Notes under the pieces: model-generated
What the model was told of the DNA's origin: nothing
Database searches by the model: none
Seen by the model: only the letters and a program-made list of their open reading frames with translations
Translations under genes and position numbers: made by a program
Assembly (NCBI GenBank): GCA_030603885.1
Contig: JAUVWW010000003.1
Coordinates: 13,223-77,222 of the forward strand
DNA length: 64,000 bases
Source of the DNA: a bacterium
GTDB lineage: Bacteria > Patescibacteriota > JABMPQ01 > JAUVWW01
Reading direction: 5' to 3'
In this document: one piece after another, positions 12,386-36,348 of the stretch
Numbering within the stretch: the first letter of the stretch is position 1
Layout: each line of letters opens with the position of its first letter

Positions 12386-12386
12386 T

Positions 12387-16819: not shown

Positions 16820-16900
16820 CTCTTGATATTAGATATGATAAAATAAAGTAAAGAAGACTGATTTTTTCGCTAATATAAAATAAAAATTAAGCAAATTATT

Positions 16901-17869
16901 ATGCCAAATACAAGCAAAGCTAAGATCATTGCCTTGGTTATTATGGCTATTACTGTTTTATTAGTAGCCTTTTTTATTGTCAAAGAGAATTTTGCTTTGT
17001 CTCAAGAAGGAAAGATTATCTCCCGAGCTTCTATTACTGACACAGACGGAGATGGGCTGACAGATGAAGAGGAAACCAAGTATAAAACCAATCCAAATCA
17101 GGCAGATTCAGATGGAGATGGAGTATCTGATTTAGAAGAGATCCAAAAAGGAACAGATCCCAACAAAGCAGATCAAATTCCTGGGGACGTGGATTCCGAC
17201 GGAGATGGCTTGACTAATGACGAAGAAGCCAAATATGGCACAGATCCTTTTAATCCAGACACAGATCAAGATGGCTATTCAGATGGTCAAGAGATAGTTT
17301 CAGGCTATGATCCTTTAACTCCTTGTGAAGGATGTGAAGGAAGAGTGGCAGGAGACTGGTCTAAGACTTTGGAAGGTCTAACAGAGGGCTTGGAGGCTGA
17401 TAAAATTTTAGAAAATGTAGATACATCTCCAGTTGAATTACCAGATATCTCAGATTCAGAGTTAAATATTACAGATGAGACTGGAAAGAAAGCAATGAGA
17501 AAATATTTTGATGAGGTAGAAAAGGTGTTAAAAAAAGATCTGCCCTTTGTAATGGGCAAGGAAAATATTCAGGCTTTTGCATCTGATGCTCTATTAATTC
17601 TCCAGAATAAAGAGAAAATAGATGAAATTACAAAACAACTAGAGACTACCTACCAAGATATAAAAAATATTCCTACTCCAAAGGAATGTAAGACAATTAA
17701 AACAAAAACATTACAAATTTTAAAAGTATCTCCTCAAATATTGAATACAATATACGATTGTCAACAAAGAGGCGATTATTTAAGTTATTTATCTCAACTT
17801 TATAAGATTCAATCCCTTTCTCTCGTCGGAGGGGATTTAGCTAAGGAGATAACCAATATCCAAAAATAA
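16901..17869 (+). CDS. Membrane-anchored protein with thrombospondin-type-3-like Ca-binding repeats ([48 protein letters not shown])
   Basis: ORF 322 aa with an N-terminal TM helix and four D-x-D-x-D-G repeats. Confidence 0.55.
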
Positions 17870-17873
17870 ATAT

Positions 17874-18716
17874 ATGTCTTTTTTTAGAAAAATAACCTCT
17901 TTGCTGCTAATTGTGTTAATAGTGGCAACTATAGGAGGCTTTGCCTTTTTTAAACCAAAACCTGCTCAGGCAATTTTTGGAATTGGTGATACTGTATTTA
18001 ACCCCTATGATGATTTTATTCGGCCAATTATAGTGTCAACTCTTAGAACAATGTATCTGGGCGCAGTAAGGCCTCAACTGGCTAATATAATTGCCGGTAA
18101 ATCAGATAGACCAATTTATGTACCTAATGCAGCAGAGTACCTGAGAGATGTATTCACAGATGAAGTAGCTAAGCAGATTGAAGAAATATCTGGTATAAAT
18201 GTCTGTGAGCCATTTAAAGCTCAGCTAGTTATCGCTTTAGGAGCAAATTTTGCTAGGCTTCCCTATGAAAGGCCCCCGGCTCCTGAATGTACAGCTGAGA
18301 GGGCTTGGAAAAATATCGAAGAAGGTGTGGCCAGTCTAGATGATTTTGTTGTAATCTCACAACCTCAGAACAATATCTTTGGTGCCTATCTCATAGCTAG
18401 TGATAATATGGAGAGAATAATAGGTCGAAAACTTGAATACGAGAACACACAGCTGGTAACCGGTCAAGGATTTATAGGTGTTAGGGCTACAAGAATAAGA
18501 GATGGAAAAGAGGAGGAATATGTTAAGACACCTGGTGCAATAGTATATAAAATGGTTACTGATACTGATCGATCACCTTTAGAAATTATTCAGAATTCTA
18601 AAGATGTCGCCTCTTTGTTTACTGGCATAGCTTATGATCTTATCACCGTAGCCACAGGAGGACTGACAGAAAGATTTTACAGGTCAGCAATGAATTATTA
18701 TGAATCAAAGAGATAA
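17874..18716 (+). CDS. Membrane-anchored hypothetical protein (T4SS-like locus)
   Basis: ORF 280 aa with an N-terminal TM/signal segment. Confidence 0.4.
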   Translation: MSFFRKITSLLLIVLIVATIGGFAFFKPKPAQAIFGIGDTVFNPYDDFIRPIIVSTLRTMYLGAVRPQLANIIAGKSDRPIYVPNAAEYLRDVFTDEVAKQIEEISGINVCEPFKAQLVIALGANFARLPYERPPAPECTAERAWKNIEEGVASLDDFVVISQPQNNIFGAYLIASDNMERIIGRKLEYENTQLVTGQGFIGVRATRIRDGKEEEYVKTPGAIVYKMVTDTDRSPLEIIQNSKDVASLFTGIAYDLITVATGGLTERFYRSAMNYYESKR

Positions 18717-18731
18717 TTTTTACTACAATCC

Positions 18732-21107
18732 ATGCTAAGAAAATCTAAAAATTTCCTTATTTACTTTCTGGTTTTTAGTTTTGTTTTATTATCTCAACCA
18801 TGGTTAGTTAATAAAGCAAGTGCTTATACAAGGCCCACTCTCAATTTAAACATCCCTTCTCAGCCGAAGATTGGTGATGAGATGAAAATTAGGGTCATGG
18901 CCATGTATTTTGACGAAAAAGAGCCTACAAAGATAGGGTATAGTTATTATATCAAGGGCTTTCCAGGTGGGGGCCTTGTAGCTGGGTCTCAAGATAGATT
19001 TGTTAAAGATGGGGTATTGGGCAATCAATATGGCAATTTAAAATATATAGATTATGAACCAACTGCTGGGCATAAGATTAGATATTGGTATAGGACTACT
19101 TTAGATTCTACAGGAACAGAGAAAGAGCCATGGGAGAATAATGATAAGGATATAAATAAAAATAAAATACATGATGATTGGGAAAGAAGATATTTTAGAA
19201 TTGACCCTACAACTGAAGCAGTAAATCCAGATGATGATCCAGATGGGGACAGTTATAATTGGCTGGATAGAATGAAAGCTGCTCATAGGGTATGTATAAC
19301 TTTCAGCATGCCTGAGGCAACCCATTGTGCACTTTACGGATTTCCAGGTGAAGTTTGCTTGCACAAGGCACTATTTGATGCTGGAGTTCCTCAAACAGCA
19401 GATGTTGGTCCTGCAGGAATTATTAATCCTACCTCTCCTAGATATGGAATAGGTACAGACAATAAGTTTACTAACTATGAAGAATATGTTTTTGGAACTA
19501 ATCCTAAATTAGCAGATACAGATGGAGACAGTATATTGGACGAAGCCGATGTAATTGGTATGGGTCAAGATGAGTGTAAGTTTAAGGTTACTCCTGCCTT
19601 AGGTCCGGTAGGAAGAAAGTTTCCTGTGGAGATTAAAACTCTAGGCTATGTTCCAAGAGGTAGTGGTGAATTTCATTGGTGGCGGGGAGGGTCGCCTGGG
19701 TGGGGTGGTATCTTTGATTGGTCTTGTCTTCTTCTACTTTCTAAAACAAATACTGTTGAAATTTCCCCTGGCCCTCCTTTAGATATTATTTTGCAGTCAG
19801 AGCCAGAAGTTCCTACTCCAGCTAATAATGGAACAGATTATCCTGAAGTTAAGATAGAAGCTTCAGTAACAGGAATGGAATATAAACAGAGATTGTATTT
19901 TAAATGGTATATTGGGGCCAAGGTAATAGATGAGGGATACGGAAAGAATATATTTACATTTCCAGTAACTGCTGATCCTTGCAGTGTTGTTCCGGTTACC
20001 TGTGATGTTTCAGAGGAGTTTCCTGGGGGGGTAGTTAGATCCGGATCTGCTAGTTTGGATATGGGAATTGGATATGATATTCCAGAAGATGCCTTATCAG
20101 CTAGCCTGCTTTACAATACTTCCCAAGACCAAGACGAAGATGGCTGTATAGACGGGGATATGAATTGTAATTTCATATTAGATGGTGGCGAAACTTGGAC
20201 TACAACAGATCCATTTTATGATCAGATAAACGATGACCTATTGAATAACGGTCGTAATATAAGACAAAATGATGTAATAACAATACATACCGAATTTTCC
20301 AGTACTAATGGATTATGTACTTTGCCAGATTCAGACGAGCCAAAAGATTTTGTCTATGTCTGGTATCTAGATGGAAAAGAGCAGACAGACCAATCAGGTG
20401 CAGGAGATAAACCTAATCCTCAAATCGAAGGAGGAACTTTTCAAGATTTTAAATTTACTGTTACCAAGCCTCCTGGAAGTAAACATCTAGTAAAATTAAA
20501 ACTAATCAGAATCTCTGATGGTTTTGAATATGGTCAGTTTGGAGAGAAAGTATTTACTGTTCAAACCCCAACAGCTTCTATAGAATCAGGTACAGCTTTT
20601 GGTTGCGATGAAGAGGAGACAGGTTTGTGTAGAGTAATATTAGAGCCTGATGAAACACGAACAGTAGATTTTAAAGCTGTTCTTGAATATTTCCAGCCTA
20701 CCTATGCCGAAACTTTCCATTATACCTGGACTTTTGATGGAGAAGTAGTTAAAGAGAAAGATACTACTGAAGCTGAGGATATTCTCACTTATGAATTTAC
20801 TCATCCAGGAGGAGTAGAAGAGGAGCGTACAGAGAGCCACACTGTAGTAATAACTGTAGATAATTATATAGACTTAGATGAGATAGCAGATGAATCAGCT
20901 ATAAATACTTATGCTGTGGAGCTAGTGCTAAAGCCGGGTGGAGCAGCAGTTGCCCGGGGTCCCCTCCGAACTTTCTTTGCTCAGGCAGGCCAGGCTGTAT
21001 CAAGCCATTTCAAAAATATCTTTAACATTGTTTTCACTATAGGTGTCATTGGCTTTATTGTCTTTGTAGTTATGGCGGCAGGACAGATTAAGAGAAAAAA
21101 AGAATAG
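18732..21107 (+). CDS. Large secreted surface protein with C-terminal TM anchor
   Basis: ORF 791 aa with a signal peptide, an Asp-rich Ca-binding-like motif (DTDGDSILDE) and a C-terminal hydrophobic helix plus KRKKE. Confidence 0.5.
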   Translation: MLRKSKNFLIYFLVFSFVLLSQPWLVNKASAYTRPTLNLNIPSQPKIGDEMKIRVMAMYFDEKEPTKIGYSYYIKGFPGGGLVAGSQDRFVKDGVLGNQYGNLKYIDYEPTAGHKIRYWYRTTLDSTGTEKEPWENNDKDINKNKIHDDWERRYFRIDPTTEAVNPDDDPDGDSYNWLDRMKAAHRVCITFSMPEATHCALYGFPGEVCLHKALFDAGVPQTADVGPAGIINPTSPRYGIGTDNKFTNYEEYVFGTNPKLADTDGDSILDEADVIGMGQDECKFKVTPALGPVGRKFPVEIKTLGYVPRGSGEFHWWRGGSPGWGGIFDWSCLLLLSKTNTVEISPGPPLDIILQSEPEVPTPANNGTDYPEVKIEASVTGMEYKQRLYFKWYIGAKVIDEGYGKNIFTFPVTADPCSVVPVTCDVSEEFPGGVVRSGSASLDMGIGYDIPEDALSASLLYNTSQDQDEDGCIDGDMNCNFILDGGETWTTTDPFYDQINDDLLNNGRNIRQNDVITIHTEFSSTNGLCTLPDSDEPKDFVYVWYLDGKEQTDQSGAGDKPNPQIEGGTFQDFKFTVTKPPGSKHLVKLKLIRISDGFEYGQFGEKVFTVQTPTASIESGTAFGCDEEETGLCRVILEPDETRTVDFKAVLEYFQPTYAETFHYTWTFDGEVVKEKDTTEAEDILTYEFTHPGGVEEERTESHTVVITVDNYIDLDEIADESAINTYAVELVLKPGGAAVARGPLRTFFAQAGQAVSSHFKNIFNIVFTIGVIGFIVFVVMAAGQIKRKKE

Positions 21108-21144
21108 AGTCTCCAAATTTACAAATTTCAATTAAAAATTATTA

Positions 21145-23757
21145 ATGATATTTGATTCTATCCAGCAAAAATTGATTCAGGTTTATTTTAAAGGAAAATC
21201 TTTTATTTTTTCCCATAAAAAAGTCGTAATCGCCGGAGTCTTGCTTTTGGCTCTGGTTTTTGTTCTTTTGCCTCATTTTTCACAAGCAGCAAAAGCACCA
21301 ACTTCAATAGAAGTACCAGGGGGAAACTTTCTAGCCTGGGTATTGTATATGGCTAAGATGTTAATATATTGGTTAACATTACTTGCAGCCAGAATTTTAG
21401 CTTGGATGCTAAGAGGAACTCAGGGTTTTCTAGATAGTGAATTAGTTACTGTGGGCTGGTCTGTAGTTAGAGATACAGCCAATATGTTCTTTATTTTAAT
21501 TTTGTTGGTTATTGCCTTTGGCACTATCTTACGTCTGGAAGCCCTTGGCCTTACCTACAAAAGACTTCTTACTCCCATGATCGTTGCTATTTTATTAGTT
21601 AATTTTTCTCGGACCATTTGCACTACCATTGTTAATTTTTGTGATACTTTAATGGAGGGATTTATAGGAGGAATATCAGGCGGAAAAATAGGGACTTTAC
21701 CCGATGCCCTTGTTAGTGGTATGCAGTTAGATAAGATGTGGGAAACAGCTCCCGTAAAGATTAGCTTGTGGAAAATTTTCACTGGATTTCAGACGTTAGA
21801 TGTGATTTTAGCCCAAGCTTTTGATAGTGCTTATGCTAGCGTAGCTTTAATAGCCATGTTAGCAGTCTGTATCTTTTTAATGATCCGAGTTTTGGCTTTG
21901 AGCCTTTTAACCATTGCTGCTCCTCTGGTATTTGTCATGCAAATAATACCAGCTACCAAAACCTATGTAGCTAAGTGGTGGCCTACTTTTATTAAGTATG
22001 CTCTCTATGGACCCATAGCTGCTTTTTGTGTTGCCCTGGCTGGAAAAATGAGTGAGCTTCTTAGAAAAGGTGGGATAGGGCTTTTGGGATGGGAAAAACT
22101 TTCAAATGTGGAACAGCAAGCGCTAGAAAAAGCGGGTTTTGCTTCTGCCATTAGCACTCCCAGAGCCCTTGTAGAAGGCCTTTTTGTCTGTGGAATTCTC
22201 TTTGCCGCGGTTTTGGCTGCCCAACAGCTTGGTCTACACGGCGCAGGAGCCATTGTTAAACTTGCCAGAGGAGGAGCAGGAGTTTTGTTTACGGGAGCCA
22301 AAGCTGGAGGAAGATTTGTTGGTCGAAGAGTATCCATGGGTCTAGGTGCAGGTAAGGAGGGCCTTGTAGGGAAAGTTATGACTCGGGTGGGACTAGGGAA
22401 ATATGCAGATTTTCCCCGTTTTCTCTCTCCTAGGGTGCTAAAAGAAGGTTTAAAAACAAGAATAGAGGAGGCTGAAAAAATGTCCTACGAGGGAGCTTAT
22501 GGTTGGGTCACGGATAGAGTAAACGCTTTATCTACTAAAACTCTTGGTAGTTTAGGAATGGCAAGAATAATGAAAAGAGATTACGAGTCCATAGATTTAG
22601 CAAAGGCTCGAAAAGAGAGAAGAGCTTATTTTCAAGAAGTCAATCCCCATGGTGGCCATCCTTATCTAAGAGACGAATTCTGGAAAGCTGTAGAGGCTAA
22701 AGATATACCGGGATTACAGGAGCTCTTGCTTGAACTAGGCCCACGTCAAAATTGGAATGAGCTTTTAAGGGAATCAGCCCAAGCACCTAAAACCGAAAAA
22801 ATTGGAAGACACATGTTCTCTAAAAAGTATAAGATCTTATTTGGAGAGAAATATTTAGCAAGTGAGAAAATTCAGAAAGAAATGGATCGAACCGGGATGT
22901 TAAAGTTTGATAATGCATCCAGGATAGCCATGCTTGAGAGTCTCTTTGGCAAAGAAAGGGGTATTAAGCTTGGAGCAGAGATATCCGAGGAAGGAAAAAT
23001 TTCAGGAGATCAATCCCGGTCTGAAATGAGAGATTTTCATGCTGGAAAGGAGATCTGGACAGGAACAGTGCAAGTTAATGAGGCTAAAAGAGACGCTGAG
23101 ACGTTATCCGAAGCTGCTTTGAGAGATAAGGCGTTAAAGGCTGGATTTACAAAGACTGATATAGAGGGAGCCTCAAAGCTAAGATTGGCTTACCTAGTTA
23201 AAGCTGTTGAGGTGGGAGCAGACAGAGATGAGATGATCCAGATAGCTCTTGCGCCAGACGAGAATCTCGATGAGATTTATAAGCAGAAAAGAGACACAGA
23301 AAAGTTAAGGGATGTTGTTGATCAAGAGCTAGAGGCTAAGATTATGGATCGGGTTAGAGGACATAGGGCAGCCATAGAACATGCCAAACAGTCTTCCCGA
23401 AAGAAGCTGGATCAATCCAGATTTACCCATGTTATTGTAGGCTATAAGTCAGATGGATCAGAGATGGTCTTTGATATGACTACCAATGCTAGAGATACGG
23501 CAGAGGGTGGAAACTATGTAGCGGGTGATATACATGAAGTAGATAGGTTTACTTCCGCCGTAACTATAGAAAACCAAGTCAAACCTAATGTAAAGATAAT
23601 AAGAAAATATACACTTAAGAAAACAAAAAAGAGAGATCCAGAAGCAGCTAAGCGAAGTGAAGCCTACTATGCACAAGTAGATTATGCTCATGAGCATCCA
23701 GAAGGAGAGCTGAAAAAATTAGCAAGAGCCATACTGGAAGAGGAAAAAGAAAAGTAA
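21145..23757 (+). CDS. VirB6/TrbL-like polytopic membrane protein with long C-terminal hydrophilic domain
   Basis: ORF 870 aa with a signal peptide, then about six TM helices in the first ~400 aa with VirB6-like topology. The C-terminal ~450 aa are charged and helical. Confidence 0.5.
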   Translation: MIFDSIQQKLIQVYFKGKSFIFSHKKVVIAGVLLLALVFVLLPHFSQAAKAPTSIEVPGGNFLAWVLYMAKMLIYWLTLLAARILAWMLRGTQGFLDSELVTVGWSVVRDTANMFFILILLVIAFGTILRLEALGLTYKRLLTPMIVAILLVNFSRTICTTIVNFCDTLMEGFIGGISGGKIGTLPDALVSGMQLDKMWETAPVKISLWKIFTGFQTLDVILAQAFDSAYASVALIAMLAVCIFLMIRVLALSLLTIAAPLVFVMQIIPATKTYVAKWWPTFIKYALYGPIAAFCVALAGKMSELLRKGGIGLLGWEKLSNVEQQALEKAGFASAISTPRALVEGLFVCGILFAAVLAAQQLGLHGAGAIVKLARGGAGVLFTGAKAGGRFVGRRVSMGLGAGKEGLVGKVMTRVGLGKYADFPRFLSPRVLKEGLKTRIEEAEKMSYEGAYGWVTDRVNALSTKTLGSLGMARIMKRDYESIDLAKARKERRAYFQEVNPHGGHPYLRDEFWKAVEAKDIPGLQELLLELGPRQNWNELLRESAQAPKTEKIGRHMFSKKYKILFGEKYLASEKIQKEMDRTGMLKFDNASRIAMLESLFGKERGIKLGAEISEEGKISGDQSRSEMRDFHAGKEIWTGTVQVNEAKRDAETLSEAALRDKALKAGFTKTDIEGASKLRLAYLVKAVEVGADRDEMIQIALAPDENLDEIYKQKRDTEKLRDVVDQELEAKIMDRVRGHRAAIEHAKQSSRKKLDQSRFTHVIVGYKSDGSEMVFDMTTNARDTAEGGNYVAGDIHEVDRFTSAVTIENQVKPNVKIIRKYTLKKTKKRDPEAAKRSEAYYAQVDYAHEHPEGELKKLARAILEEEKEK

Positions 23758-23847
23758 CCTTTTATGCCTGAATATCTAACAAATATGCAAGACTAGTAGA
23801 CTAAAAAGAGATAAAAAGATGAAAACATATTCTAAGTTACCTGACAA

Positions 23848-25428
23848 ATGATTCTCAATTTAGTAAAAAAAGAGCTAGACAAACCTGAGACTTTCGAAAA
23901 GATTTTGAGAAAAATCAGAGTTTGGCATTATGACGGTTATAGAAGGTATACAGATGAGATAATGGTCTTTATTGTTGAGCTTGGAAAGAGACTGCCAGAC
24001 CTGAAGAGGACCAATCCAGACCTAGCTTCAAAATATGAGACAATCTCAATCAATCTCAAATGGGAGATGTTAGAGAATCTTCCAGATGATGAAGTGGTCG
24101 AGATGTTTGAGAAATATTATCTTACAGGTCTTAAGAAAGGGACTAACTTGGTGGATAGATTAAGGATAAAAATGCTGATTATATCAATATGGCTGAGAGA
24201 TGATTATCTCAAAGAAATAAGGCAAGTTTTAGAGAAAAATACCCAGAGATTAGGGACCAAGACTATTATTGTTCCTGGTCAGGTGAGACCCCAACCTCCA
24301 ACAATAGGAAATTGGCTTCTAGATTACAATGATGCCTTAGGAGTAGGAAAGCATAGCGATATAGCTATTTCTAACTATTTTGTCACATCTGCTAATGTTG
24401 CTGGCCTAACTACCGAAGAAAAAGAACTCCTGAGAAAAACCATTCTCTTTTATGAACTTCTAAAATTAGGTGTTAGAGATCCAGGCTCAATGAGTGGTTA
24501 CTCTTTGAATTTTTATGGCATCAGGGGTACTGAGGCTATACCTGTCGAATCTGGTATGGGTCATTTTGTTACTTATCCAGCATTGTCAAGAAGATTTGCC
24601 GGAGAACATCCCATTCCAGGCTCTCCTCGGCTAGGAGTACTTGCAGAAAGAAAAAGAAAAAGAGAAGTAGCCAAGGTAAAAGAACACCTAGCCAAGATAG
24701 CAAGGAAGCCCCTTGCTCCACCAATTACCCCTCCACATATTAAGGCGCCTAAGCCACCATCAGAAATAGAAAAAGAGATTGAAGCTAAAAGAAAAGCAGA
24801 AGAAGAGAGGATTGCTCGTTTAGAGAGAGAAATGGAGCCAAAAGTGGCTCCGCCACCTAAAGTCAAAATACCCAAACCTCTCGAAGTTCCTAAAACACCT
24901 CCTAGGCCAGAGGTTGCTCCTCTTAAGATTAAGCCTGCTCCGGAATTTAAGCCTCCTGAGGCACCAAAGCCTAAACCACTCGCTCCTCCAGAGATTAAGC
25001 CTGCTCCTCCTTTGCCTCCAAAACCAGCAAGGCCACCTCGAATCGAGGCTGCTCCTCCACCCCCACCTAAGCCCGCTCCTCCGCTAGAGCCAAAAGCTCC
25101 TCCCAAAATTGAATCAGTTGATGATATTAAAAAACTTGGCTTGGATGATTTTAGGAGCTATCGAGAAGTACCTCTTGATTCTGCACGGGTTATTACAGAA
25201 AAAATAAATTCTTTACTAGCTGAAGCTTCTCCTTTAGATAAAATAAAAGCTCTGGCCTTTTGGAAAGAAAGTAATCTTTATAAACTTTATATTGAGATGG
25301 GAAGAGAATCCATGGCTCAAGGTATCTCTGTCAAAGAGCTAGCTGAAAAAAGAAGAGCTGAGGGAAAACCATTTTTGTCCCATGAGGAGTTTGAGGCGAT
25401 AGTGGAGATATCAGGAAGCATTGGATAA
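23848..25428 (+). CDS. Hypothetical protein with central Pro-rich repeat region (PPxKP/APPxxKP)
   Basis: ORF 526 aa. The PxP repeat block runs from about 24700 to 25110. Confidence 0.45.
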   Translation: MILNLVKKELDKPETFEKILRKIRVWHYDGYRRYTDEIMVFIVELGKRLPDLKRTNPDLASKYETISINLKWEMLENLPDDEVVEMFEKYYLTGLKKGTNLVDRLRIKMLIISIWLRDDYLKEIRQVLEKNTQRLGTKTIIVPGQVRPQPPTIGNWLLDYNDALGVGKHSDIAISNYFVTSANVAGLTTEEKELLRKTILFYELLKLGVRDPGSMSGYSLNFYGIRGTEAIPVESGMGHFVTYPALSRRFAGEHPIPGSPRLGVLAERKRKREVAKVKEHLAKIARKPLAPPITPPHIKAPKPPSEIEKEIEAKRKAEEERIARLEREMEPKVAPPPKVKIPKPLEVPKTPPRPEVAPLKIKPAPEFKPPEAPKPKPLAPPEIKPAPPLPPKPARPPRIEAAPPPPPKPAPPLEPKAPPKIESVDDIKKLGLDDFRSYREVPLDSARVITEKINSLLAEASPLDKIKALAFWKESNLYKLYIEMGRESMAQGISVKELAEKRRAEGKPFLSHEEFEAIVEISGSIG

Positions 25429-25460
25429 TTTAAAGTTAAATTATTAATAATTCATTTTTT

Positions 25461-25925
25461 ATGCAATATGCTGTTCCTCAATTTGTCGAGATAGAAGACA
25501 AAGTCATCGGCCCTCTCACTGTTCGGCAATTTTTGATTATTTTGGCTGGAGGAGGACTGACTTTTTTAGCCTACAGATTAGCCGATCTTACTCTTTTTAT
25601 TTTGTTAGCTCTGGTGATTATGGGGGGAGCATGTGCTTTTGCTTTTGTCAAAATTAATGGCCAGCCCATACATCAGTATGGCCTGAATGCTTATAAGTTT
25701 CTGACCAAACCAAAGATTTTAATGTGGGCTCATGATCCTAAGCTGGCTCGAGTAAAAGCCACCGAAAAAGTTAAAATAGCTCGACCTAAAATAGAAGAGG
25801 CAGTGCCAGCAAAAGAAATAGTTCCAAGAAGTAAATTAAGAGATTTGTCTGTTATTTTAGATACCTATACGGAGGGAGTGGAGAGAGAAGAAAAGAAAGA
25901 GGGCGAAGAGAGAAAAGAAAAATAG
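25461..25925 (+). CDS. PrgI/VirB3-like small membrane protein
   Basis: ORF 154 aa with an LTVRQFLIIL motif followed by two TM helices. It lies directly upstream of VirB4, as in Gram-positive T4SSs. Confidence 0.5.
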   Translation: MQYAVPQFVEIEDKVIGPLTVRQFLIILAGGGLTFLAYRLADLTLFILLALVIMGGACAFAFVKINGQPIHQYGLNAYKFLTKPKILMWAHDPKLARVKATEKVKIARPKIEEAVPAKEIVPRSKLRDLSVILDTYTEGVEREEKKEGEERKEK

Positions 25926-25952
25926 CTTATTAAATTTAACTGCCTAACGAAG

Positions 25953-26771: not shown

Positions 26772-26798
26772 AAAGGTCTCGACCTTTATCTGAATTTA

Positions 26799-28664
26799 TT
26801 GTTCAAAACCATGGTCGAAAAACTCGAAACAAAACAAGTTCCCATAGGTAAAAAAGATCTTGAAAGTCTCACTCTAGAAGAGAGAGAGGCTATTCTTAAA
26901 GCCGAAGAAATCTATCGTAAGGGCCTGGTTTCTGTTCAGGATATCATTGCTCCTTCTGCTTTAAAAATAAATCCTGATCATATTATTATTGGTACCAAGT
27001 ATGCTCGTACTATATACCTAGTTACTTATCCTCGGTATCTAATGACTGGTTGGTTTGCTCCCATAATTAACTTAAATGTGGCTTTGGACATTGCCCTGTT
27101 TATTGAGCCTATGTCTTCAGAGACAGTGTTGAAGACTCTTCGTTCTAAAGCAGCTCAAGTTCAGGCAGGCATAGCTGGCAATATAGAAAAGGGAATGGTC
27201 AGAGATCCTATTTTGGATGCAGCTTTAAAAGATGTAGAGACTTTGAGAGATAAGCTAACTGCCGGAACAGAGAGATTTTTTCATTTCGGACTTTACATCA
27301 CTATCTATGCTAAAAATACAGAAGAATTAGAAAAGACCACCACTGAAATAGAAACTATGTTTGGGCATAAGTTAATTATGTCCCGGAGAGCCGTATTTCA
27401 AGGGGAGCAGGGTTTTAATTCCACTTTACCTTTTGGAATGGATGATCTTGGTATAACCCTGCCCATGAATACAGGACCTTTATCTACTTCATTCCCGTTT
27501 GTCTCAAGTGAACTTACTTCAGATAAAGGAATTCTTTATGGCATAAATCGGCATAACAACTCCCTAATTTTATTTGATCGATTTTCTCTTCCCAATGCAA
27601 ACTCAGTTGTTTTTGCTACTTCAGGAGCTGGAAAGAGTTATGCTGTGAAACTTGAAGTTTTAAGATCTATGATGTTTGGTACTGATGTCATTATTGTCGA
27701 CCCAGAAAATGAATATCAGCATTTATCTGAAGCTGTGGGTGGAACTTTCTTGAAAATTTCTTTAGGAGCCAATTATATTATCAATCCTTTTGATCTTCCT
27801 AAACCTGTGGCTGGAGAGTCTACTGAAGATATTATCAGATCTGCTGTTATTAGCTTAAAGGGATTAATGAAGGTTATTTTAGGCCGAATGACTAAAGAAG
27901 AAGAGGCTTTGGTAGACAAAGCTCTACTTGAGACTTATGCTGCCAGAGACATTACTCCTGAATCAGATTTAGCTAAAATTACTCCTCCAACTATGGAAGA
28001 TTTTGAGAGCATTCTCTCTGGTATGGAAGGAGCAGAAGATCTTGCTCTAAGAATTCAGAAATATACCAAAGGAACCTTTGCAGGGCTTTTTAATAAACCT
28101 ACCAATGTAGAGCTGAAACAGCAGTTGGTAGTCTTTTCTATTCGAGACCTTGAGGATGAACTTCGTCCAGTAGCTATGTACATTATCTTGAATTATATCT
28201 GGAATATAGTAAGATCAGAATTGAAGAAAAGAATTTTAGTTGTTGATGAAGCTTGGTGGATGATGCAATATGAAGATTCGGCTCGGTTCCTATTTGGATT
28301 AGTTAAAAGAGCAAGAAAATATTATCTGGGAGTGACAGTTATTTCTCAAGATGTAAATGACTTCTTGACTTCTGATATGGGCAAAGCAGTAGTGACTAAC
28401 TCTGCCATGCAAATATTACTTAGACAGTCTCCAGCAGCTATTGATCTTTTAAGAAAAACATTTTATCTGACTGAGGAAGAAAAATATCTACTTTTGGAAT
28501 CCAATGTAGGGGAGGGAATATTCTTTGCCGGAGCCAAGCATGTGGCCATAAAGATAGTTGCCTCTTATTCTGAAGATCAGATTATTACCACTGACCCAAG
28601 ACAGCTTTTAGAGATAGAAAAGGCAAAGGAGGAATTTGCCGAGGCAGAGAAACAAGCAGGTTAA
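26799..28664 (+). CDS. VirB4-like T4SS ATPase (Walker A ATSGAGKS, Walker B ILVVDEAWWMM)
   Basis: ORF 621 aa (TTG start in the track; ATG at 26811). It has the conserved IIGTKYARTIYLVTYPRY region and P-loop NTPase motifs. Confidence 0.85.
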   Translation: MFKTMVEKLETKQVPIGKKDLESLTLEEREAILKAEEIYRKGLVSVQDIIAPSALKINPDHIIIGTKYARTIYLVTYPRYLMTGWFAPIINLNVALDIALFIEPMSSETVLKTLRSKAAQVQAGIAGNIEKGMVRDPILDAALKDVETLRDKLTAGTERFFHFGLYITIYAKNTEELEKTTTEIETMFGHKLIMSRRAVFQGEQGFNSTLPFGMDDLGITLPMNTGPLSTSFPFVSSELTSDKGILYGINRHNNSLILFDRFSLPNANSVVFATSGAGKSYAVKLEVLRSMMFGTDVIIVDPENEYQHLSEAVGGTFLKISLGANYIINPFDLPKPVAGESTEDIIRSAVISLKGLMKVILGRMTKEEEALVDKALLETYAARDITPESDLAKITPPTMEDFESILSGMEGAEDLALRIQKYTKGTFAGLFNKPTNVELKQQLVVFSIRDLEDELRPVAMYIILNYIWNIVRSELKKRILVVDEAWWMMQYEDSARFLFGLVKRARKYYLGVTVISQDVNDFLTSDMGKAVVTNSAMQILLRQSPAAIDLLRKTFYLTEEEKYLLLESNVGEGIFFAGAKHVAIKIVASYSEDQIITTDPRQLLEIEKAKEEFAEAEKQAG

Positions 28665-28673
28665 ACCTATAAA

Positions 28674-29315
28674 ATGTTCAAAAAAAATCTTTCTAAAAAA
28701 TTTATTCTAGTCATTTTTGTTGGATTGATCGTAGTCTTAGTAACGGCTGGTTTGGGTTGTAAAGAACCAGCCGAAGAAGAAGCTGCTTCTCCAGCTCCAG
28801 TAGCCAAACCAGTGGAAAGACCAGCTGAAGAGATTGAAGAAGAGGCTAAACCAGTAGCCAAGCCCAAAGAAGAGGTTGAACCTATAGAAGAAGTAACACC
28901 CGAGGAAGAAAAGCCTCAAGAGCTTCCCCTGACAGCTGAAGATGAGCAAGCCCTAGTCCTAAAACAAGCAGAAAAAATAGCCCAGATTTATGGGACCTAT
29001 GCTACTACGGATGACCCCCCTTACAAAAATATAAGAGATCTAAAAGATTTTGGAACTGATGCATTTAATTCCTGGCTAGATACCATCATTAAAGATGTTG
29101 CTCCCACTGGTCCGTTTCATGGATGGGCCACTACGGCTATATCTTCTGCTATATTAGAAAGTTCTTTTGATTCTATGGAAATATTAATTACTTGTAAAAA
29201 AGAGGAGTTTTTAGAGACTCAGAGAGCTCCAAAAGTAAGTTATAAAATGTTGAAGATAAGTTTTAAGAAAGTTGGGGAAGATTGGAAAGTGGATAGAGTG
29301 AAATGGATAGAATAG
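28674..29315 (+). CDS. Putative lipoprotein (lipobox LGC) with acidic and Pro-rich linker
   Basis: ORF 213 aa with signal peptide plus Cys lipobox. Confidence 0.45.
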   Translation: MFKKNLSKKFILVIFVGLIVVLVTAGLGCKEPAEEEAASPAPVAKPVERPAEEIEEEAKPVAKPKEEVEPIEEVTPEEEKPQELPLTAEDEQALVLKQAEKIAQIYGTYATTDDPPYKNIRDLKDFGTDAFNSWLDTIIKDVAPTGPFHGWATTAISSAILESSFDSMEILITCKKEEFLETQRAPKVSYKMLKISFKKVGEDWKVDRVKWIE

Positions 29316-29328
29316 TGAATAGTGATTC

Positions 29329-29874
29329 TTGATTCAAAATTCAATACCCATGGAAATATCTCAACAAGAAATACAATGGAAACGTCAATTGGCTGCCATC
29401 AGGCGAGCCAAGCAAGGTATTGGAGTGGCTAAAGATATTGGAAAATCAAGATATTTAAAAGATGGAGGAAATCCAGGTCTAGAAGATCCTCCCCAGGAGG
29501 AGGAGATTTTGCCAGAGGAGGAACAACCAAGTGCAGTAGCTAGACTTAGAGAGGCTGCCGAAGAAGAAGCAAAAAGACTAGCTAAGGAAGCAATTAAGAA
29601 AGCAGCCAAGAAAGTAGTTAAGAAGGCAGCTGTAAGCGTTTTTAAGGCCTTAGCAAAAAATCCTTACTTTTGGGTAGCTGTAGGAATAATAGTGGGTATA
29701 ATTCTTTTAGTCGTGCTGGTAGTGGTAGTATATAATATTAGCGGGGGTGGAGTAGAGATTACTCCAGAGGAAAGAGCATATTATGAGGAAGTGGTAACTG
29801 AAGAAAGAATGGAAAGTTTTCTAGATAAACCTGCCCCAGTGCCTGTACCTGGAGGAATACCAATCCAAAGGTAG
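29329..29874 (+). CDS. Hypothetical single-TM protein with Lys/Ala-rich helix
   Basis: ORF 181 aa. Confidence 0.4.
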   Translation: MIQNSIPMEISQQEIQWKRQLAAIRRAKQGIGVAKDIGKSRYLKDGGNPGLEDPPQEEEILPEEEQPSAVARLREAAEEEAKRLAKEAIKKAAKKVVKKAAVSVFKALAKNPYFWVAVGIIVGIILLVVLVVVVYNISGGGVEITPEERAYYEEVVTEERMESFLDKPAPVPVPGGIPIQR

Positions 29875-29939
29875 AGGATTAAGGTTATAGGTAGGAAGTT
29901 AATATGGTTTAAGAGCTAAGGTTATATCTATTAGTTAAT

Positions 29940-30581
29940 ATGTTCAATAAATTAAAATCCATTTTTCTTTTTCTTGTCTGCCTAGCTTTATTTGTTTTAC
30001 CTCTATTTACTCTTGCCCAAGAAGGATTTTTTGGTGAGGCAGAAACAGCTACTGGAATGATTAGAAATATTTATTGGTTTGGAGTAGTCATAGTTGGCTT
30101 TGCGGCTGTGGTAGCCATTGTCATTGCTGGCATAATGTATATGCAGTCCTATGGAGATCCGCAGAAAATAACCCAGGCCAAACAGCTTTTAGGAGGTGCT
30201 CTTATTGGTATGGTCCTACTTCTTTTTTCCTACACCATTCTCCGAACCATAAATCCTGCCTTGGTAAGACTAAGGGAGCCGATGTTGGAGGTGGAGTTGG
30301 AAAAGCCTGAATGTCTTCCAAACGGGACTTCGTGTAATGTACATGCTGAATGTTGTAGTGGAAGATGTGATCCGCAAACAAGACTGTGTATAACTCCTGG
30401 GGGTGGAACCGCTGGAAAATGTAATGAAGAAGACCCTACAAAAAAACATGAGTGTTGTAAAAATAATGATACTGGCGAATTTTGGGAAGCATGGCTAGGG
30501 GTTAATCAATACTGTCACCATGTTTGTCCTGAAACCCCCGGGGGTTGGGCTGGCGTCGGTTCTTCTGCTTGTGGATTTTAA
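29940..30581 (+). CDS. VirB2/TrbC-topology pilin-like protein (signal peptide plus two TM helices) fused to a C-terminal Cys-rich domain (14 Cys)
   Basis: ORF 213 aa. It is a paralog of 31941-32951, sharing the FFGEAE motif after the signal peptide, a two-TM hairpin and P.L....P.LEVEL. Confidence 0.5.
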   Translation: MFNKLKSIFLFLVCLALFVLPLFTLAQEGFFGEAETATGMIRNIYWFGVVIVGFAAVVAIVIAGIMYMQSYGDPQKITQAKQLLGGALIGMVLLLFSYTILRTINPALVRLREPMLEVELEKPECLPNGTSCNVHAECCSGRCDPQTRLCITPGGGTAGKCNEEDPTKKHECCKNNDTGEFWEAWLGVNQYCHHVCPETPGGWAGVGSSACGF

Positions 30582-30655
30582 ATTACAGATTGAATTAATA
30601 AAAAGGGGCAGTCTCCCTGAGAACAATAGAATAATTTAACAATTAAACAATTTCC

Positions 30656-31831
30656 ATGTCTAGAAAACTTATTATCATTGGAATTGGAGCAGCTATTTTG
30701 ATTCTTATTGTTGTTGTAGTTGTCTCTACTATAATAAGAAGAAGAGCTGTTGCTCCTACCCCTGCTCCTGAACCAACTCCACCTCTGACCGAAGAAGAAA
30801 AAAGACTGATTCCTGCTGGAGAAAGGGTAATATCATCTGAAGCAGAGGAGATTGCTGGCCGGCTTAAAATAGAAAAGACTTTAGATGTTCAAACTCAGGC
30901 TCCAGCTCAGTCTGCAGAAGGAGATAATATTGTCTATTTCGATCAAAAAGCAGGCGAGTTTTATATTGCCTCAATGGCTGGAGCAAATATCGAGCCTCTA
31001 ACCCAGGCTGGATTTAGAAATGTTGAAGATATAGTTTGGTCTCCCAAAAAAGACAAAGCTATAATAGTCTTTCCTGAAGAAAAGCATACTTATGATCTAG
31101 TAGAAAAATCATCAACCAAACTAGATGAGCACATGACTGCTGCCACTTTTTCTCCAGATGGATCAAAGATTCTTTATAAATTCGATTCAGATACTCTTCG
31201 TGCTTTATCAATGGCTGACCCCGACGGTTCTAATTGGAAAAGGATTAAAGATGTGGGGCCGGGGAATTTAGTTTTACATTGGTACAGGCCAGACAGAATT
31301 GCCTATCATTCTCCTGCCTCAGGATATTCTCGGACCACTATTTATACTTGTAATTTAGAAGGAAAAGACATAAAAGTTATTGCTTCGGATAACTATGGCT
31401 CAGGAGCCAAATGGTCTCCTGATGGCTTAAAAATGATCTTTACCACCTCACCAAAAGAATCTTCTAGCCTAGCTTTGAAGCTGGCTTGGGGTGATGGAAG
31501 TCATGTTAGAGATCTTGGCATGAATAGCCTGGTTGAAAAATGCACTTTCTCTCAAGATTCAAAATCTTTATATTGCGCTCTTCCTGAACCTGTCTCAACT
31601 GTATTTGTTTTACCTGATGATTGGTATGACAAGAAAGTAATCACCTCTGATTCTTTTTGGAAAATAGATACCGAGACTGACGAGCGAACAAAAATAGCCT
31701 CAACTGACGACATTGAGACACTATATGGTAAGACTTTTGACGCTTCGAATTTATTTGTTTCACAAGATGCTTCAAGACTTTTCTTTACTGCTAGAAATGA
31801 TGGTAAGTTGTATAGTTTGATACTGCCTTAG
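30656..31831 (+). CDS. Membrane-anchored PD40/TolB-like beta-propeller protein
   Basis: ORF 391 aa with an N-terminal TM helix and repeated WSP.../SPDG... blades. It is a paralog of 32977-34152, with shared C-terminus DGKLYSL. Confidence 0.5.
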   Translation: MSRKLIIIGIGAAILILIVVVVVSTIIRRRAVAPTPAPEPTPPLTEEEKRLIPAGERVISSEAEEIAGRLKIEKTLDVQTQAPAQSAEGDNIVYFDQKAGEFYIASMAGANIEPLTQAGFRNVEDIVWSPKKDKAIIVFPEEKHTYDLVEKSSTKLDEHMTAATFSPDGSKILYKFDSDTLRALSMADPDGSNWKRIKDVGPGNLVLHWYRPDRIAYHSPASGYSRTTIYTCNLEGKDIKVIASDNYGSGAKWSPDGLKMIFTTSPKESSSLALKLAWGDGSHVRDLGMNSLVEKCTFSQDSKSLYCALPEPVSTVFVLPDDWYDKKVITSDSFWKIDTETDERTKIASTDDIETLYGKTFDASNLFVSQDASRLFFTARNDGKLYSLILP

Positions 31832-31940
31832 CTATAAAGACACAAATTTTCCACGAATATTAACTCGAATAAATATAGTGCAGACCTTCGGTCTGCTTTT
31901 GTTAGACATAAGGCATGTTTTTTGATAGAATACAATTAGT

Positions 31941-32951
31941 ATGCGTCTCAAAATAATGACAATCTCAATTTCGATTATTCTAGCAAGTGTTTGTGCTACA
32001 AGCATAGCTCATGCTCAGGCAGTTCCCTTTTTCGGAGAGGCAGAAAATATCTGTGAGCTAATAAAAAACATTGTTTATTTTGGAGTAGGTTTAGCTGGTG
32101 TTGCTGCTATGCTGGTGATCATGATTGGAGGGATTATTTACATGGTTTCTTTTGGTTCGGAGGAAAGAAAGAAAACTGGCATGGACCTTATGGGAGGGGC
32201 AGTCAAAGGCTTACTTTTAGCTCTTTTTTCCTGGACCATTTTTTATATTATTAGTCCCTATCTTTTAAGATGTAAAGTGCCTGTGTTGGAAGTAGAGCTA
32301 CCAGAATGGTATGGAGAAAGAGAAAGAGGGATAGCAAAACGCCTTCCTTGTCAAGGTAAGGAAACCTTTGACCGGGCTGAATGTAGCACAAAATGTGGCG
32401 TAGAGCCAGGCGAAGCAAGGCCAGGCATGAATTGTATCCCAGAAAAGAATTCTTGTGGTCAAGAAGGAGATAAATACTGTTGCCTAGATTTAAAAATCGA
32501 TCATATCACTGTTCATTGGACAGCTGGACATCCTAGTCATATCACTAATTTCTGTACAAATGGGTATCTTGGATATCACTATGTTGTCGATTCACAGGGA
32601 ACTGTTCATCAAATGGCAAAGGATTGGGAAATCCCCCCCTGGCATACTAAAGGTAGAAATACTCGGGGCATTGGTATTACTGCCGCAGGTATGGCTGGAG
32701 CCGGCACAACTTGCTATGTGGAGAGTGGTGATATCGGTGGATGTCCTAATTGTCCAAACTGTCTTACCCAGGCTCAGATAAATGCAATGAAAGCCAAAAT
32801 AGCAGAACTAGCAAATAAATATAATATTCCTTCTACTACTGCCGGTATAATCACACACGGAGAAGCTGCTATAGAAGATGGATACTATCCAAATAGATGG
32901 GAATACACTGTAAAAAATAAGGTTAACTATGGACCCGAATTTCGACAATAA
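31941..32951 (+). CDS. VirB2-topology pilin-like protein fused to a Cys-rich region and a C-terminal Amidase_2/PGRP-type N-acetylmuramoyl-L-alanine amidase domain
   Basis: ORF 336 aa. HITVHWTAGH...YHYVVDSQGTVHQ...WHTKGRNTRGIGI matches the Amidase_2 core. The N-terminus is paralogous to 29940-30581. Confidence 0.6.
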   Translation: MRLKIMTISISIILASVCATSIAHAQAVPFFGEAENICELIKNIVYFGVGLAGVAAMLVIMIGGIIYMVSFGSEERKKTGMDLMGGAVKGLLLALFSWTIFYIISPYLLRCKVPVLEVELPEWYGERERGIAKRLPCQGKETFDRAECSTKCGVEPGEARPGMNCIPEKNSCGQEGDKYCCLDLKIDHITVHWTAGHPSHITNFCTNGYLGYHYVVDSQGTVHQMAKDWEIPPWHTKGRNTRGIGITAAGMAGAGTTCYVESGDIGGCPNCPNCLTQAQINAMKAKIAELANKYNIPSTTAGIITHGEAAIEDGYYPNRWEYTVKNKVNYGPEFRQ

Positions 32952-32976
32952 AAAACTTAAATGTTAAGTTTGATTT

Positions 32977-34152
32977 ATGAAATTAAGTAAGAGAGCAATT
33001 ATTTTCGGCTGTGCACTGGTAATTTTAATAATTGCAGCCATTATTATTTTTGTTAGGAGAAGAGCAGTTCCTAAAGTTCCAGAAGAAGAGATTCACGAAC
33101 GAATAACTTTTTTAGAAGCTAATCCAGACATTAAATTAGCTTTTGAAGAATCACAGACCCCTGTCGTTCCAGAACCTTTAAAGATAACTGAAGTTATTGA
33201 TGATAGGGTTTCTTTTCCTAGCTTGTCTTTAGAAGAGAGGGGTATTTTTTACTTTTCTCTAACGGGTGGAAGACTTTATAGGACACAATTGGATACAAAA
33301 GAGAAAAGAGAATTATTTCCACTAGCACGATTCGAGAATATGGACAGTGTTATTTGGTCGCCTTTGTTTAATCGAGCTATCATTTCTTATCGCTCCTTTC
33401 CCAAAGAATATCTATTAGATGATTTAGAATATTTAGAGATGCCTGTTACCAAAGAAGTACTCGATTTTTCTAGTCAATCCTCGGTCAGATTAAATAAGAA
33501 TATAGAAGATGTCATGTGGACTCCTAGTGGCGATAGAATTGTCTATCATTATTTAGATGAAGAACAAGATCTAAGTGTAATAAGTATTGCTGATCATGAT
33601 GGTGGTAATTGGAGGAATTTAAAGGAATTAACTATTACACCTTACTCAAAAGTTTTAAGACTTGTTAAATGTTATAGTAATAGGGTTCTTTTTGTTTCTT
33701 TTTCTGATGATGGTTCAGAATTTACCTTATATAGTTTGGATTTATTTAGTGGAGAGCAGACCAGGATAATAGATAAAATCCGGTGGGCAAAGCCATCCCC
33801 AGATGGAAGAAGTATTTTAGTAGAGGCTATGGAAAATGGTAATTTGATTCATTTTGTGATGGATTTAGACAGGAGAACGAGAGAAATTTTAGATATAGAT
33901 ACCTTGATAAATAAATGTGTTTGGAGTAATGATAACACAACTATTTACTATGCCTTAGGAGATAATGTTAATTATTTAGTTTCTGATAGTTTTTGGAAGC
34001 TAAACACTGTTACAGGTCAAAAAACCCAACTTACTAATTTAGATCTAGACTCTCCTATTGATGCCAGTGATCTATTTCTATCTCAAGATGAAAAGACTCT
34101 TTTCTTCAAAAACAATATTGATGGCAAGCTTTATTCCTTGGCTCTTTACTAG
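32977..34152 (+). CDS. Membrane-anchored PD40/TolB-like beta-propeller protein (paralog 2)
   Basis: ORF 391 aa with the same architecture and length as 30656-31831. Confidence 0.5.
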   Translation: MKLSKRAIIFGCALVILIIAAIIIFVRRRAVPKVPEEEIHERITFLEANPDIKLAFEESQTPVVPEPLKITEVIDDRVSFPSLSLEERGIFYFSLTGGRLYRTQLDTKEKRELFPLARFENMDSVIWSPLFNRAIISYRSFPKEYLLDDLEYLEMPVTKEVLDFSSQSSVRLNKNIEDVMWTPSGDRIVYHYLDEEQDLSVISIADHDGGNWRNLKELTITPYSKVLRLVKCYSNRVLFVSFSDDGSEFTLYSLDLFSGEQTRIIDKIRWAKPSPDGRSILVEAMENGNLIHFVMDLDRRTREILDIDTLINKCVWSNDNTTIYYALGDNVNYLVSDSFWKLNTVTGQKTQLTNLDLDSPIDASDLFLSQDEKTLFFKNNIDGKLYSLALY

Positions 34153-35586: not shown

Positions 35587-35613
35587 AAATATAAAAATTT
35601 AATTGAAATAAAT

Positions 35614-35647
35614 AACGGTGAATCTCGAATGCTCAAGATTCACCGTT
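35614..35647. terminator. 12-bp perfect hairpin (aacggtgaatct...agattcaccgtt) between convergent radA and dksA-like genes
   Basis: An inverted repeat with flanking A/T runs. Confidence 0.55.
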
Positions 35648-35662
35648 CCCCACATCATAAAG

Positions 35663-36064: not shown

Positions 36065-36348
36065 CTGTGCCCTCCTCTTTTTATTGAGTTTTTCTTATTT
36101 TCCATTTCTTTGAACTCATATAAAAAGAGTTACTACAGGCCATCTAATATCTTTTTCATTACCACCTCCTTTTTTAAAGGTACAAAGTTATGTTTATGGC
36201 GAGCCAGCGAGAGGAGTTATCAAATAAGGGAGAAGAGGGCACCCCCAACCCTTATTTGATAGTAGGGAGTAAGCAGTAGGAAAAGGCCCGCCATTTTTAT
36301 CAAGGTACTGTCTATATTATAATTTACTAAAAAATCTTGTCAAGGCTT

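Follow-up and report, generated by a model that had tools for sequence, protein, structure and literature searches.

The patescibacterial type IV secretion system (T4SS), called a newcomer to the T4SS superfamily in a 2025 review, was surveyed by Quinonero-Coronel et al. (2025, Microb Genom; PMC12102498), who reported an MPF_FATA-related VirB4 clade, a TrsD encoded alongside, PrgI, VirB6, arrays of VirB2, almost no relaxases and a nearby ksgA. In the class ABY1, comF, recG and radA occur in the same locus, and VirB8 matches are mostly found there. The saccharibacterial T4SS is essential for epibiotic growth and is without a recognizable coupling protein or relaxase (Wang et al. 2023, Cell; PMC10633639). 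Both effector export and ComB-like uptake of DNA or nucleotides have already been proposed as its role (PMC11665869).

The stretch analyzed here, hereafter the window, comprises 64,000 nucleotides of contig JAUVWW010000003.1 (positions 13,223 to 77,222) from the Patescibacteriota assembly GCA_030603885.1. Positions 16901-34152 of the window harbor 14 open reading frames (ORFs), all in the same orientation and spaced by 4-109 bp, which encode a T4SS-like block, as a preliminary description of the sequence had recognized. With a probability of roughly 0.75, this block is a chromosomally fixed, monoderm-type Patescibacteria T4SS of ABY1-like arrangement that bridges an epibiont to its host and is non-conjugative. 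The resemblance to a minimal Gram-positive-type T4SS noted earlier is consistent with this monoderm type. Non-conjugative host interaction and ComB-like uptake, both suggested at that stage, were sound ideas, yet both are already in print. The T4SS type itself is likewise published, and the clade-specific twist lies in hydrolase-fused pilins paired with propellers, which merit a systematic survey. The preliminary description had overlooked the C-terminal domains of these pilins (one Amidase_2, the other Cys-rich and knottin-like), as well as a TrsD-like ORF of 272 amino acids (aa), a 181-aa protein with a single transmembrane (TM) segment and two 391-aa propellers.

Secretion core and conserved gene order

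The VirB4 ATPase, the hallmark motor protein of T4SSs, exceeds the cutoff of a whole NCBIfam family (Table 1). It additionally matches Pfam P-loop_TraG (93 bits) and CagE_TrbE_VirB (28.9 bits against a cutoff of 21), and its runner-up NCBIfam matches are the VirB4 of Mycoplasma integrative and conjugative elements (ICEs; 247 bits), TraC (173) and VirB4_CagE (124). Its best PDB match is the Thermoanaerobacter VirB4 structure 4AG5 (E 1.1e-43), and both the Walker A residues (G276/G278/K279/S280) and the Walker B residues (D483/E484) are invariant across 19 orthologues. This protein has no counterpart to the first ~170 positions of the CD1110-type VirB4 model. The preceding TrsD-like ORF matches positions 2-119 of the 752 in conju_CD1110 (E 1.1e-5) and the TrsD family NF041427 (E 4.6e-6), all of its NCBIfam matches being partial and under the whole-family cutoffs, and 16 of 32 members of its family weakly match Pfam TraC_F_IV. 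Because the two ORFs correspond to positions 2-119 and 172-734 of conju_CD1110, respectively, these profiles identify the TrsD-like protein as the N-terminal part, now detached, of a monoderm-type VirB4, and the pair behaves as a split VirB4.

Relatives were taken from 80 retained VirB4 loci of species-representative genomes, and neighbors were identified by profile iteration or tblastn; since loci end at 10 kb or at contig ends, all neighbor counts are lower bounds. All 80 come from Patescibacteria-type metagenome-assembled genomes, with VirB4 proteins 55-70% identical to that of the window and genome labels including Komeili-, Falkow-, Magasanik-, Doudna-, Andersen-, Morani- and Portnoybacteria. 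A TrsD-like gene lies directly upstream of VirB4 in 75 of these loci. In the window, the two ORFs share one reading frame with a single TAA between them. A readthrough site or a broken VirB4 gene was ruled out, because the corresponding frames differ or overlap in relatives and the genes are split in the same 75 loci; the split is therefore old and real, and not a lesion.

The membrane platform is represented by proteins of the PrgI, VirB6 and VirB8 types. The PrgI/VirB3 assignment of the preliminary description clears its Pfam threshold; the protein has two hydrophobic segments, and its gene is located ~1.2 kb upstream of VirB4 in 74/80 loci. The VirB6/TrbL-like assignment was borne out for the family, although not for the window protein itself, which scores below the TrbL cutoff. 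This protein contains ~7 hydrophobic segments, and 14 of 32 syntenic family members, itself counted, match TrbL (best E 6.8e-10), with one matching TrbL_4; the gene is found upstream of VirB4 in 63/80 loci. These TrbL matches support a VirB6 identity for the family. W105, N113, N153-F154-S155, R248, P260 and P269 are invariant. Profile searches of the PDB with the VirB6 and TrsD-like families returned coiled-coil or chance matches only. The 213-aa protein encoded right after VirB4, previously described as a lipoprotein, does carry a lipobox-like LGC after its TM segment. The top PDB match of its family profile is PrgL of pCF10 (E 0.022), and the AlphaFold2 (AF2) model of its C-terminal domain, which is conserved, shows three helices and four strands (pLDDT ~62-84); it is probably a membrane-anchored, NTF2-type VirB8-like protein, and homologous genes occur in 37/80 loci. 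Lgt and signal peptidase II are encoded on either side of a DksA/TraR-type zinc-finger ORF at 11214-12869 (+), so that lipoprotein processing for this LGC-lipobox protein is provided 16 kb upstream. A second DksA/TraR-like Cys4 ORF, judged by eye from the sequence, follows RadA at 35663-36064 (-).

Two further proteins accompany the platform. The Pro-rich protein was correctly characterized before, with 12% proline and no TM segment, and a profile of its N-terminal domain places it between VirB6 and PrgI in 56/80 loci. Its C-terminal domain (residues 420-526) was modeled by AF2 with a pLDDT of 85-93 and has no fold match, the best Foldseek hit having an E-value of 0.24. Two Pro-rich paralogues are present in relatives L014, L015 and L027 (about 2800-8800). 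The 181-aa single-TM protein has no homologue in the 80 loci and a faint NCBIfam match to the CD1108 mobile-element family (E 0.072).

Pfam scans covered ~54 window ORFs, including every ORF of at least ~160 aa and leaving out a handful of the smallest. Among these ORFs, no type IV coupling protein (T4CP; VirD4/TcpA), relaxase, integrase or transposase was found, in agreement with the preliminary description, which had stressed the lack of VirD4, relaxase and integrase in the 64 kb. Neither an integrase nor a tRNA gene lies at the block borders; tRNA genes are located at 5.4-5.6 kb and 40.1-41.0 kb, and repeats were not specifically searched. The comparison with small-genome relatives proposed earlier shows that the core gene order recurs in the 80 loci, many of which have ksgA upstream and radA/recG downstream; by tblastn, radA is near VirB4 in 29/80, recG in 38/80, ksgA in 19/80 and comFC in 12/80 loci. 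In the window, RecG follows RadA on the opposite strand, and housekeeping genes span 17 kb and 30 kb on the two flanks. These flanks, together with an order conserved across lineages at 55-70% VirB4 identity, indicate that the block is a vertically inherited chromosomal fixture and that an ordinary ICE is very unlikely.

The window has a G+C content of ~37%, with 0.35-0.42 inside the block against 0.31-0.41 elsewhere, that is, no marked shift. Standard-code stops are distributed as TAA 40, TAG 16 and TGA 4 over 60 ORFs, and an alternative code (UGA = Gly) was ruled out, as 4 of the 60 ORFs terminate with TGA. A promoter-like site (consensus match only) precedes the first block gene at 16816-16844. 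Such sites, with a count of 49 against 52.4 in shuffled sequence, are not enriched, and operon boundaries are therefore drawn from gene spacing only.

Table 1. Genes of the T4SS block and its immediate surroundings, in order of position in the window
Feature	Position	Strand	Characteristics and evidence
ComM-like ATPase	12879-14390		Mg_chelatase 310 bits and ChlI domains; the name ComM is our own reading
CHAP + 2xLysM peptidoglycan hydrolase	14479..15627	-	N-terminal TM; Pfam CHAP 59.5 bits, LysM 58 bits
KsgA/RsmA	15905-16819		Upstream border of block; Pfam RrnaAD 204 bits
TSP3 protein (first block gene)	16901..17869	+	N-terminal TM 9-27; four TSP3_bac repeats (Pfam 100 bits)
280-aa protein	17874..18716	+	N-terminal signal/TM 7-25
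791-aa surface protein	18732..21107	+	N-terminal signal (TM 8-26); C-terminal anchor (TM 763-781)
Extended VirB6/TrbL-like protein	21145..23757	+	TM core ~1-360; ~500-aa charged C-terminal extension
Pro-rich protein, 526 aa	23848..25428	+	Helical N-domain; ~170-aa Pro/Lys/Glu-rich linker; compact helical C-domain
PrgI/VirB3-like small membrane protein	25461..25925	+	Pfam PrgI 47.2 bits vs cutoff 27
TrsD-like protein, 272 aa	25953..26771	+	VirB4_plasma model positions 101-235 of 894, E 3.3e-14
VirB4 ATPase	26799..28664	+	NCBIfam conju_CD1110 363.2 bits vs cutoff 325, model positions 172-734
VirB8-like lipobox protein (probable), 213 aa	28674..29315	+	LGC lipobox-like motif after TM; acidic linker; C-terminal alpha+beta domain
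Single-TM protein, 181 aa	29329..29874	+	TM 116-134; charged N-terminal part
VirB2-like pilin 1, 213 aa	29940..30581	+	Pfam T4SS_pilin (PF18895) 29.0 bits vs cutoff 26.6
TolB/PD40-like beta-propeller 1, 391 aa	30656..31831	+	Pfam PD40 27.8 bits vs cutoff 20.9
VirB2-like pilin 2, 336 aa	31941..32951	+	T4SS_pilin 29.7 bits vs cutoff 26.6 (residues 35-104)
Beta-propeller 2, 391 aa	32977..34152	+	TM 8-26; weak PD40 and propeller matches
RadA	34222-35586		Downstream border of block

Pilin fusions, propellers and surface proteins

The pilin-like proteins mentioned in the preliminary description proved to be two proteins over the PF18895 cutoff, which share 39% identity in residues 1-120 but no relatedness further on. 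Both combine a signal peptide with two TM helices, which are joined by a K/R-rich loop (SEERKK). By the positive-inside rule this loop lies in the cytoplasm, and with the two termini outside, as in VirB2, the C-terminal domains are extracytoplasmic; the Cys-rich nature of these domains was also counted toward an outward-facing placement. Pilin 1, which has sub-cutoff matches to TrbC (21.1 bits) and Conotoxin (E 0.003), ends in a ~90-aa Cys-rich domain whose first six cysteines (C-x6-C-x5-CC-x3-C-x6-C) show knottin-type spacing. In pilin 2, the hairpin is followed by a Cys-rich linker and an N-acetylmuramoyl-L-alanine amidase domain of the type known from peptidoglycan recognition proteins and T7 lysozyme (Amidase_2, 57.7 bits vs cutoff 26; residues 184-309) containing HWTAGH, GYHY and THGE motifs, which are predicted to supply its catalytic/zinc residues. 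The isolated amidase domain weakly matches peptidoglycan recognition proteins and T7 lysozyme in the PDB (E 0.004-0.26) through a GYHY...HTKG.N..IGI core; the full-length pilin-amidase has no PDB match.

Each pilin gene is paired with a propeller gene. Propeller 1, with a TM anchor at residues 5-23, additionally matches NCBIfam propeller_TolB (E 6.4e-11), under the family cutoff, and the two propellers are 29% identical over their full length (E 6e-41), which points to an old duplication of a two-gene pilin and propeller module. A propeller gene is found downstream of VirB4 and adjoining pilin genes in 53/80 loci. Between propeller 1 and the pilin-amidase gene, a GC-rich, terminator-like hairpin (31880-31896) leads into a stretch of T (GCAGACCTTCGGTCTGC TTTTGTT), and immediately beyond it a promoter-like site containing an extended -10 occupies 31903-31931. 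The last pilin-propeller gene pair may thus form its own transcription unit.

Across 29 of the 80 related loci, 42 pilin-like ORFs were recognized, all co-oriented with VirB4, and their C-terminal extensions have a median length of 193 aa. The extra domains among 44 pilin-like proteins comprise VanY (4), SLT (3), GDSL (3), M15 (3) and SLT_3 (1), and in loci L002 and L006 the gene at the pilin position encodes a GDSL-pilin-SLT protein. From their family assignments, the pilin-fused domains all appear to act on the envelope, most of them on peptidoglycan, and to be interchanged between relatives. The window contains no SLT-type VirB1; the Amidase_2 pilin fusion and the upstream CHAP-LysM protein are present instead, and such pilin-fused or nearby hydrolases could be functionally equivalent to VirB1. 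The CHAP-LysM gene is divergent and lies 1.3 kb upstream of the block with ksgA in between, whereas a homologue (38-42% identity) is encoded on the same strand directly upstream of VirB6 in two Moranbacteria loci (L075, L080). This hydrolase is a possible VirB1-like accessory of uncertain locus membership.

A word-indexed search with the pilin profile returned 30 proteins, mainly short pilins. An exhaustive search with a PF18895-like pilin profile yielded 111,240 clusters at 50% identity, and the best 150 of these are mostly proteins with 2-17 pilin domains, from which a fusion frequency is not readable. One of them (P0040, in the set P0040-P0189) has 1775 aa and 17 tandem pilin stretches. Such multi-pilin proteins could be real polyproteins or tandem genes joined by wrong-code gene calling. 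Outside the block, two large ORFs upstream of pilM (42963-46838, +) encode a 553-aa protein with a weak, sub-cutoff DsbA-like match and a 734-aa protein with CarboxypepD_reg. A nearby disulfide oxidoreductase would fit Cys-rich extracellular pilin domains, but the DsbA-like match is too weak to rely on.

The TSP3-repeat protein noted in the preliminary description was recovered with its repeats and additionally bears a C-terminal domain, the profile of which finds 21 loci; homologues lie right after ksgA in L002, L003, L004, L007 and L010. Of the "two large surface proteins" reported next to it, only the 791-aa protein is large, the other having just 280 aa. The 280-aa family occurs between the TSP3 gene and VirB6 in 17 loci, as identified by profile iteration; it has no Pfam or NCBIfam match, and PDB searches gave coiled-coil or chance matches only. 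The 791-aa protein has no Pfam or NCBIfam family match either. Its profile finds 46 paralogues or orthologues in the 80 loci, mostly downstream of VirB4, and it is a candidate adhesin. Three tandem paralogues of this protein are encoded downstream of VirB4 at L010:12285-21042.

Elsewhere in the window, a peptide-maturase-like radical SAM protein with a SPASM domain (38560-40011, -) is encoded between RecG and tRNA-Arg. At 1598-2486 (-), a 138-aa ORF and an overlapping gene for a protein with a SocA/Panacea antitoxin domain (53.8 bits) likely form a toxin-antitoxin pair.

Proposed role and competing explanations

Drawing on T4SS biology and on the transposon sequencing result from Saccharibacteria, we propose that VirB4 and the TrsD-like protein would drive the construction of a short pilus or of a channel through the wall; the channel would consist of the VirB6, PrgI and VirB8-like proteins, possibly with a VirB2-type filament. 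This structure would link the epibiont and the host cell, and macromolecules would pass between the two cells, rather than serving conjugative self-transfer. The pilin-tethered hydrolases may cut peptidoglycan, either locally in the epibiont's own wall, like VirB1, or in that of the host where the two cells touch, and the surface proteins and the TSP3 protein may assist contact. Several points weigh against this proposal. A 2024 perspective called the role of the T4SS "completely unknown" (PMC11665869). A 230-aa domain on each pilin subunit would be hard to pack in a polymer. The VirB6-like window protein reaches only 17.2 bits with Pfam TrbL (cutoff 25.9), and the TrsD-like and VirB4 family profiles showed no significant similarity in hhalign (probability 0.07%, E 0.71). 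In addition, the window represents 64 kb of a ~110-kb contig, and a T4CP may be encoded elsewhere in the genome. Finally, the linkage to radA, recG and comF fits a role in DNA uptake at least as well.

In this latter explanation, which is rather improbable, the T4SS works inward and imports host DNA or nucleotides like the ComB system of Helicobacter pylori or the archaeal Ced system; the DNA would then be handled by ComM, RadA, RecG, ComFC, RecX and LigA, and the T4SS may cooperate with the type IV pilus encoded nearby. The gene neighborhood invites such a view, as the T4SS sits between a ComM-like gene and RadA, with RecG, ComFC, RecX, the type IV pilus cluster and LigA beyond. These recombination and uptake genes are located at 12879-14390, 34222-38418, 41029-42270 and 58998-61082, where ComFC was recognized by its DZR_2 (double zinc ribbon) and Pribosyltran domains and LigA as an NAD-dependent ligase (Pfam). 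The pilus cluster is complete and lies 13 kb downstream of the T4SS (46905-58949, +), encoding PilM, a PilN-like protein, PilO, PilB (T2SSE 417 bits), a PilT-like ATPase, PilC, the major pilin and PilD, as well as three more pilins with an N-methyl motif and a PilX-like protein. The counts of radA, recG and comFC within 10 kb of VirB4 given above also favor import, and the same radA/recG/comF linkage is reported for ABY1 in PMC12102498, which mentions only these three of the uptake and recombination genes. Import is further raised in PMC11665869 because comEC is dispensable whereas the T4SS is essential in S. epibionticum. However, neighboring genes in small genomes of shared synteny say little about function, and in other Patescibacteria classes the T4SS is near dnaA/dnaN instead (PMC12102498). 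VirB4 does weakly match CedB (E 6.8e-9; 34.9 bits, cutoff 700) and CedD (20.7 bits, cutoff 600) in NCBIfam, but both scores fall far short of the family cutoffs, and the matches stem from a common ATPase fold. Neither ComEC nor ComEA was detected in the window, and Pfam models of the ComB-defining VirB7, VirB9 and VirB10 match none of its ORFs, an absence expected for a monoderm.

Whether the pilin hairpins belong to a pilus at all can also be questioned. The hairpins might do no more than hold autolysins and a Cys-rich module on the membrane of the cell that makes them, where these would remodel the wall or serve division, with the propellers as Tol-like envelope proteins and neither being a functional part of the T4SS. 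This is unlikely, though it accounts for the generic wall and envelope enzymes among the fused domains (Amidase_2, SLT, VanY/M15, GDSL), for the envelope-maintenance function of TolB-like propellers in other systems and for the terminator-like and promoter-like sites that set the last gene pair apart. It accords less well with hairpins that exceed the PF18895 cutoff and adjoin VirB4, co-oriented every time, in 29/80 loci, with the position of propellers downstream of VirB4 in 53/80, and with the essentiality, in S. epibionticum, of the PF18895 pilin arrays within the T4SS cluster; even VirB1-like wall opening would still make the hairpin proteins T4SS accessories. A bolder and doubtful reading is that the VirB2-like hairpin serves as a carrier of swappable envelope-degrading or envelope-binding domains, with the propeller as its cognate partner, in a toolkit for "wall-drilling" into the host. 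Amidase, lytic transglycosylase, D,D-peptidase, GDSL esterase and knottin-like modules would then be displayed outside the cell, on or at the tip of the T4SS filament; the cognate TolB-like propeller would act as a chaperone, docking partner or inhibitor; and the polymorphic set would open the host wall where the epibiont makes contact. The possibility that the block belongs to an ICE or a decaying ICE, with relaxase, coupling protein and integrase beyond the window, is close to refuted. VirB4 meets the cutoff of an NCBIfam family named after Clostridioides difficile conjugative transposons, ~45 kb of the source contig extend beyond the window, and T4CP homologues occur in many Patescibacteria genomes, distant from virB4 (PMC12102498), but the housekeeping flanks, the ksgA-T4SS-radA-recG order kept in distinct lineages, block borders without tRNA or integrase genes and the even G+C content all speak against mobility, and the same 2025 survey counted 109 relaxase homologues in 103 genomes, with only 15 near virB4.

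No new kind of system comes to light in this locus, and the organism is uncultivated. The system is essential in the one species tested, and any locus that narrows its possible roles is useful. For annotation, the locus offers a clear and well-conserved ABY1-like case in which VirB4 is split and a probable VirB8-like protein follows directly. The fused and swapped wall hydrolases raise the questions of whether they are active, whose peptidoglycan they cut and whether they are bound or inhibited by the neighboring propeller.

Comparison with described systems

The system described in PMC12102498 is the closest counterpart, sharing with the block an MPF_FATA-related VirB4 with adjacent TrsD, PrgI, a probable VirB6-like protein (supported for its family), PF18895 pilins near virB4, the lack of a nearby relaxase or T4CP, the proximity of ksgA and the presence of comF, recG and radA in the locus. 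However, its pilins are short and arranged in arrays, whereas those of the window have 213 and 336 aa with C-terminal domains, and the text of PMC12102498 makes no mention of pilin-hydrolase fusions, TolB-like propellers, TSP3 proteins or the Pro-rich protein. Compared with its closest relatives, the window also has the large surface-protein gene upstream of VirB6, and not downstream of VirB4. The T4SS of Candidatus Southlakia epibionticum ML1 (SEML1_0006-0019) likewise encodes VirB4 (0008), a ~290-aa (293-aa) neighbor (0009), PrgI (0010), an NTF2-like protein (0012), an extended VirB6 (0013) and PF18895 pilins (0014-0019), according to the supplement of PMC10633639, in a cluster with a wall hydrolase and without a recognizable relaxase or T4CP. 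The ML1 pilins are short (~100-185 aa) and form a six-gene array, in contrast to the two propeller-paired pilin genes of the window, and its lysozyme-like hydrolase is a separate 643-aa protein (0006), whereas hydrolase and hairpin are combined in one polypeptide in the window. Essentiality has been shown for ML1 only.

The conjugative T4SSs of the MPF_FATA type, including the C. difficile CTn2 CD1110 family, pCF10 Prg, pGO1 Trs and pIP501 Tra, resemble the block in VirB4 (CD1110 cutoff), the PrgI family, a TrsD-like protein as in pGO1, a probable PrgL/TraM-type NTF2 domain and an associated wall hydrolase. The block differs from them in the absence of relaxase, T4CP and oriT-associated genes, in its chromosomal and vertically conserved location, in a VirB4 whose N-terminal part is encoded by a separate gene and in the possession of VirB2-like pilins, which monoderm conjugation systems lack. 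ComB and Ced are T4SS-derived, relaxase-less machines for DNA uptake, and the recombination genes around the block invite comparison with them. Ced also uses VirB2-like pilins, whereas ComB includes the diderm parts B7, B9 and B10, which are absent from the block.

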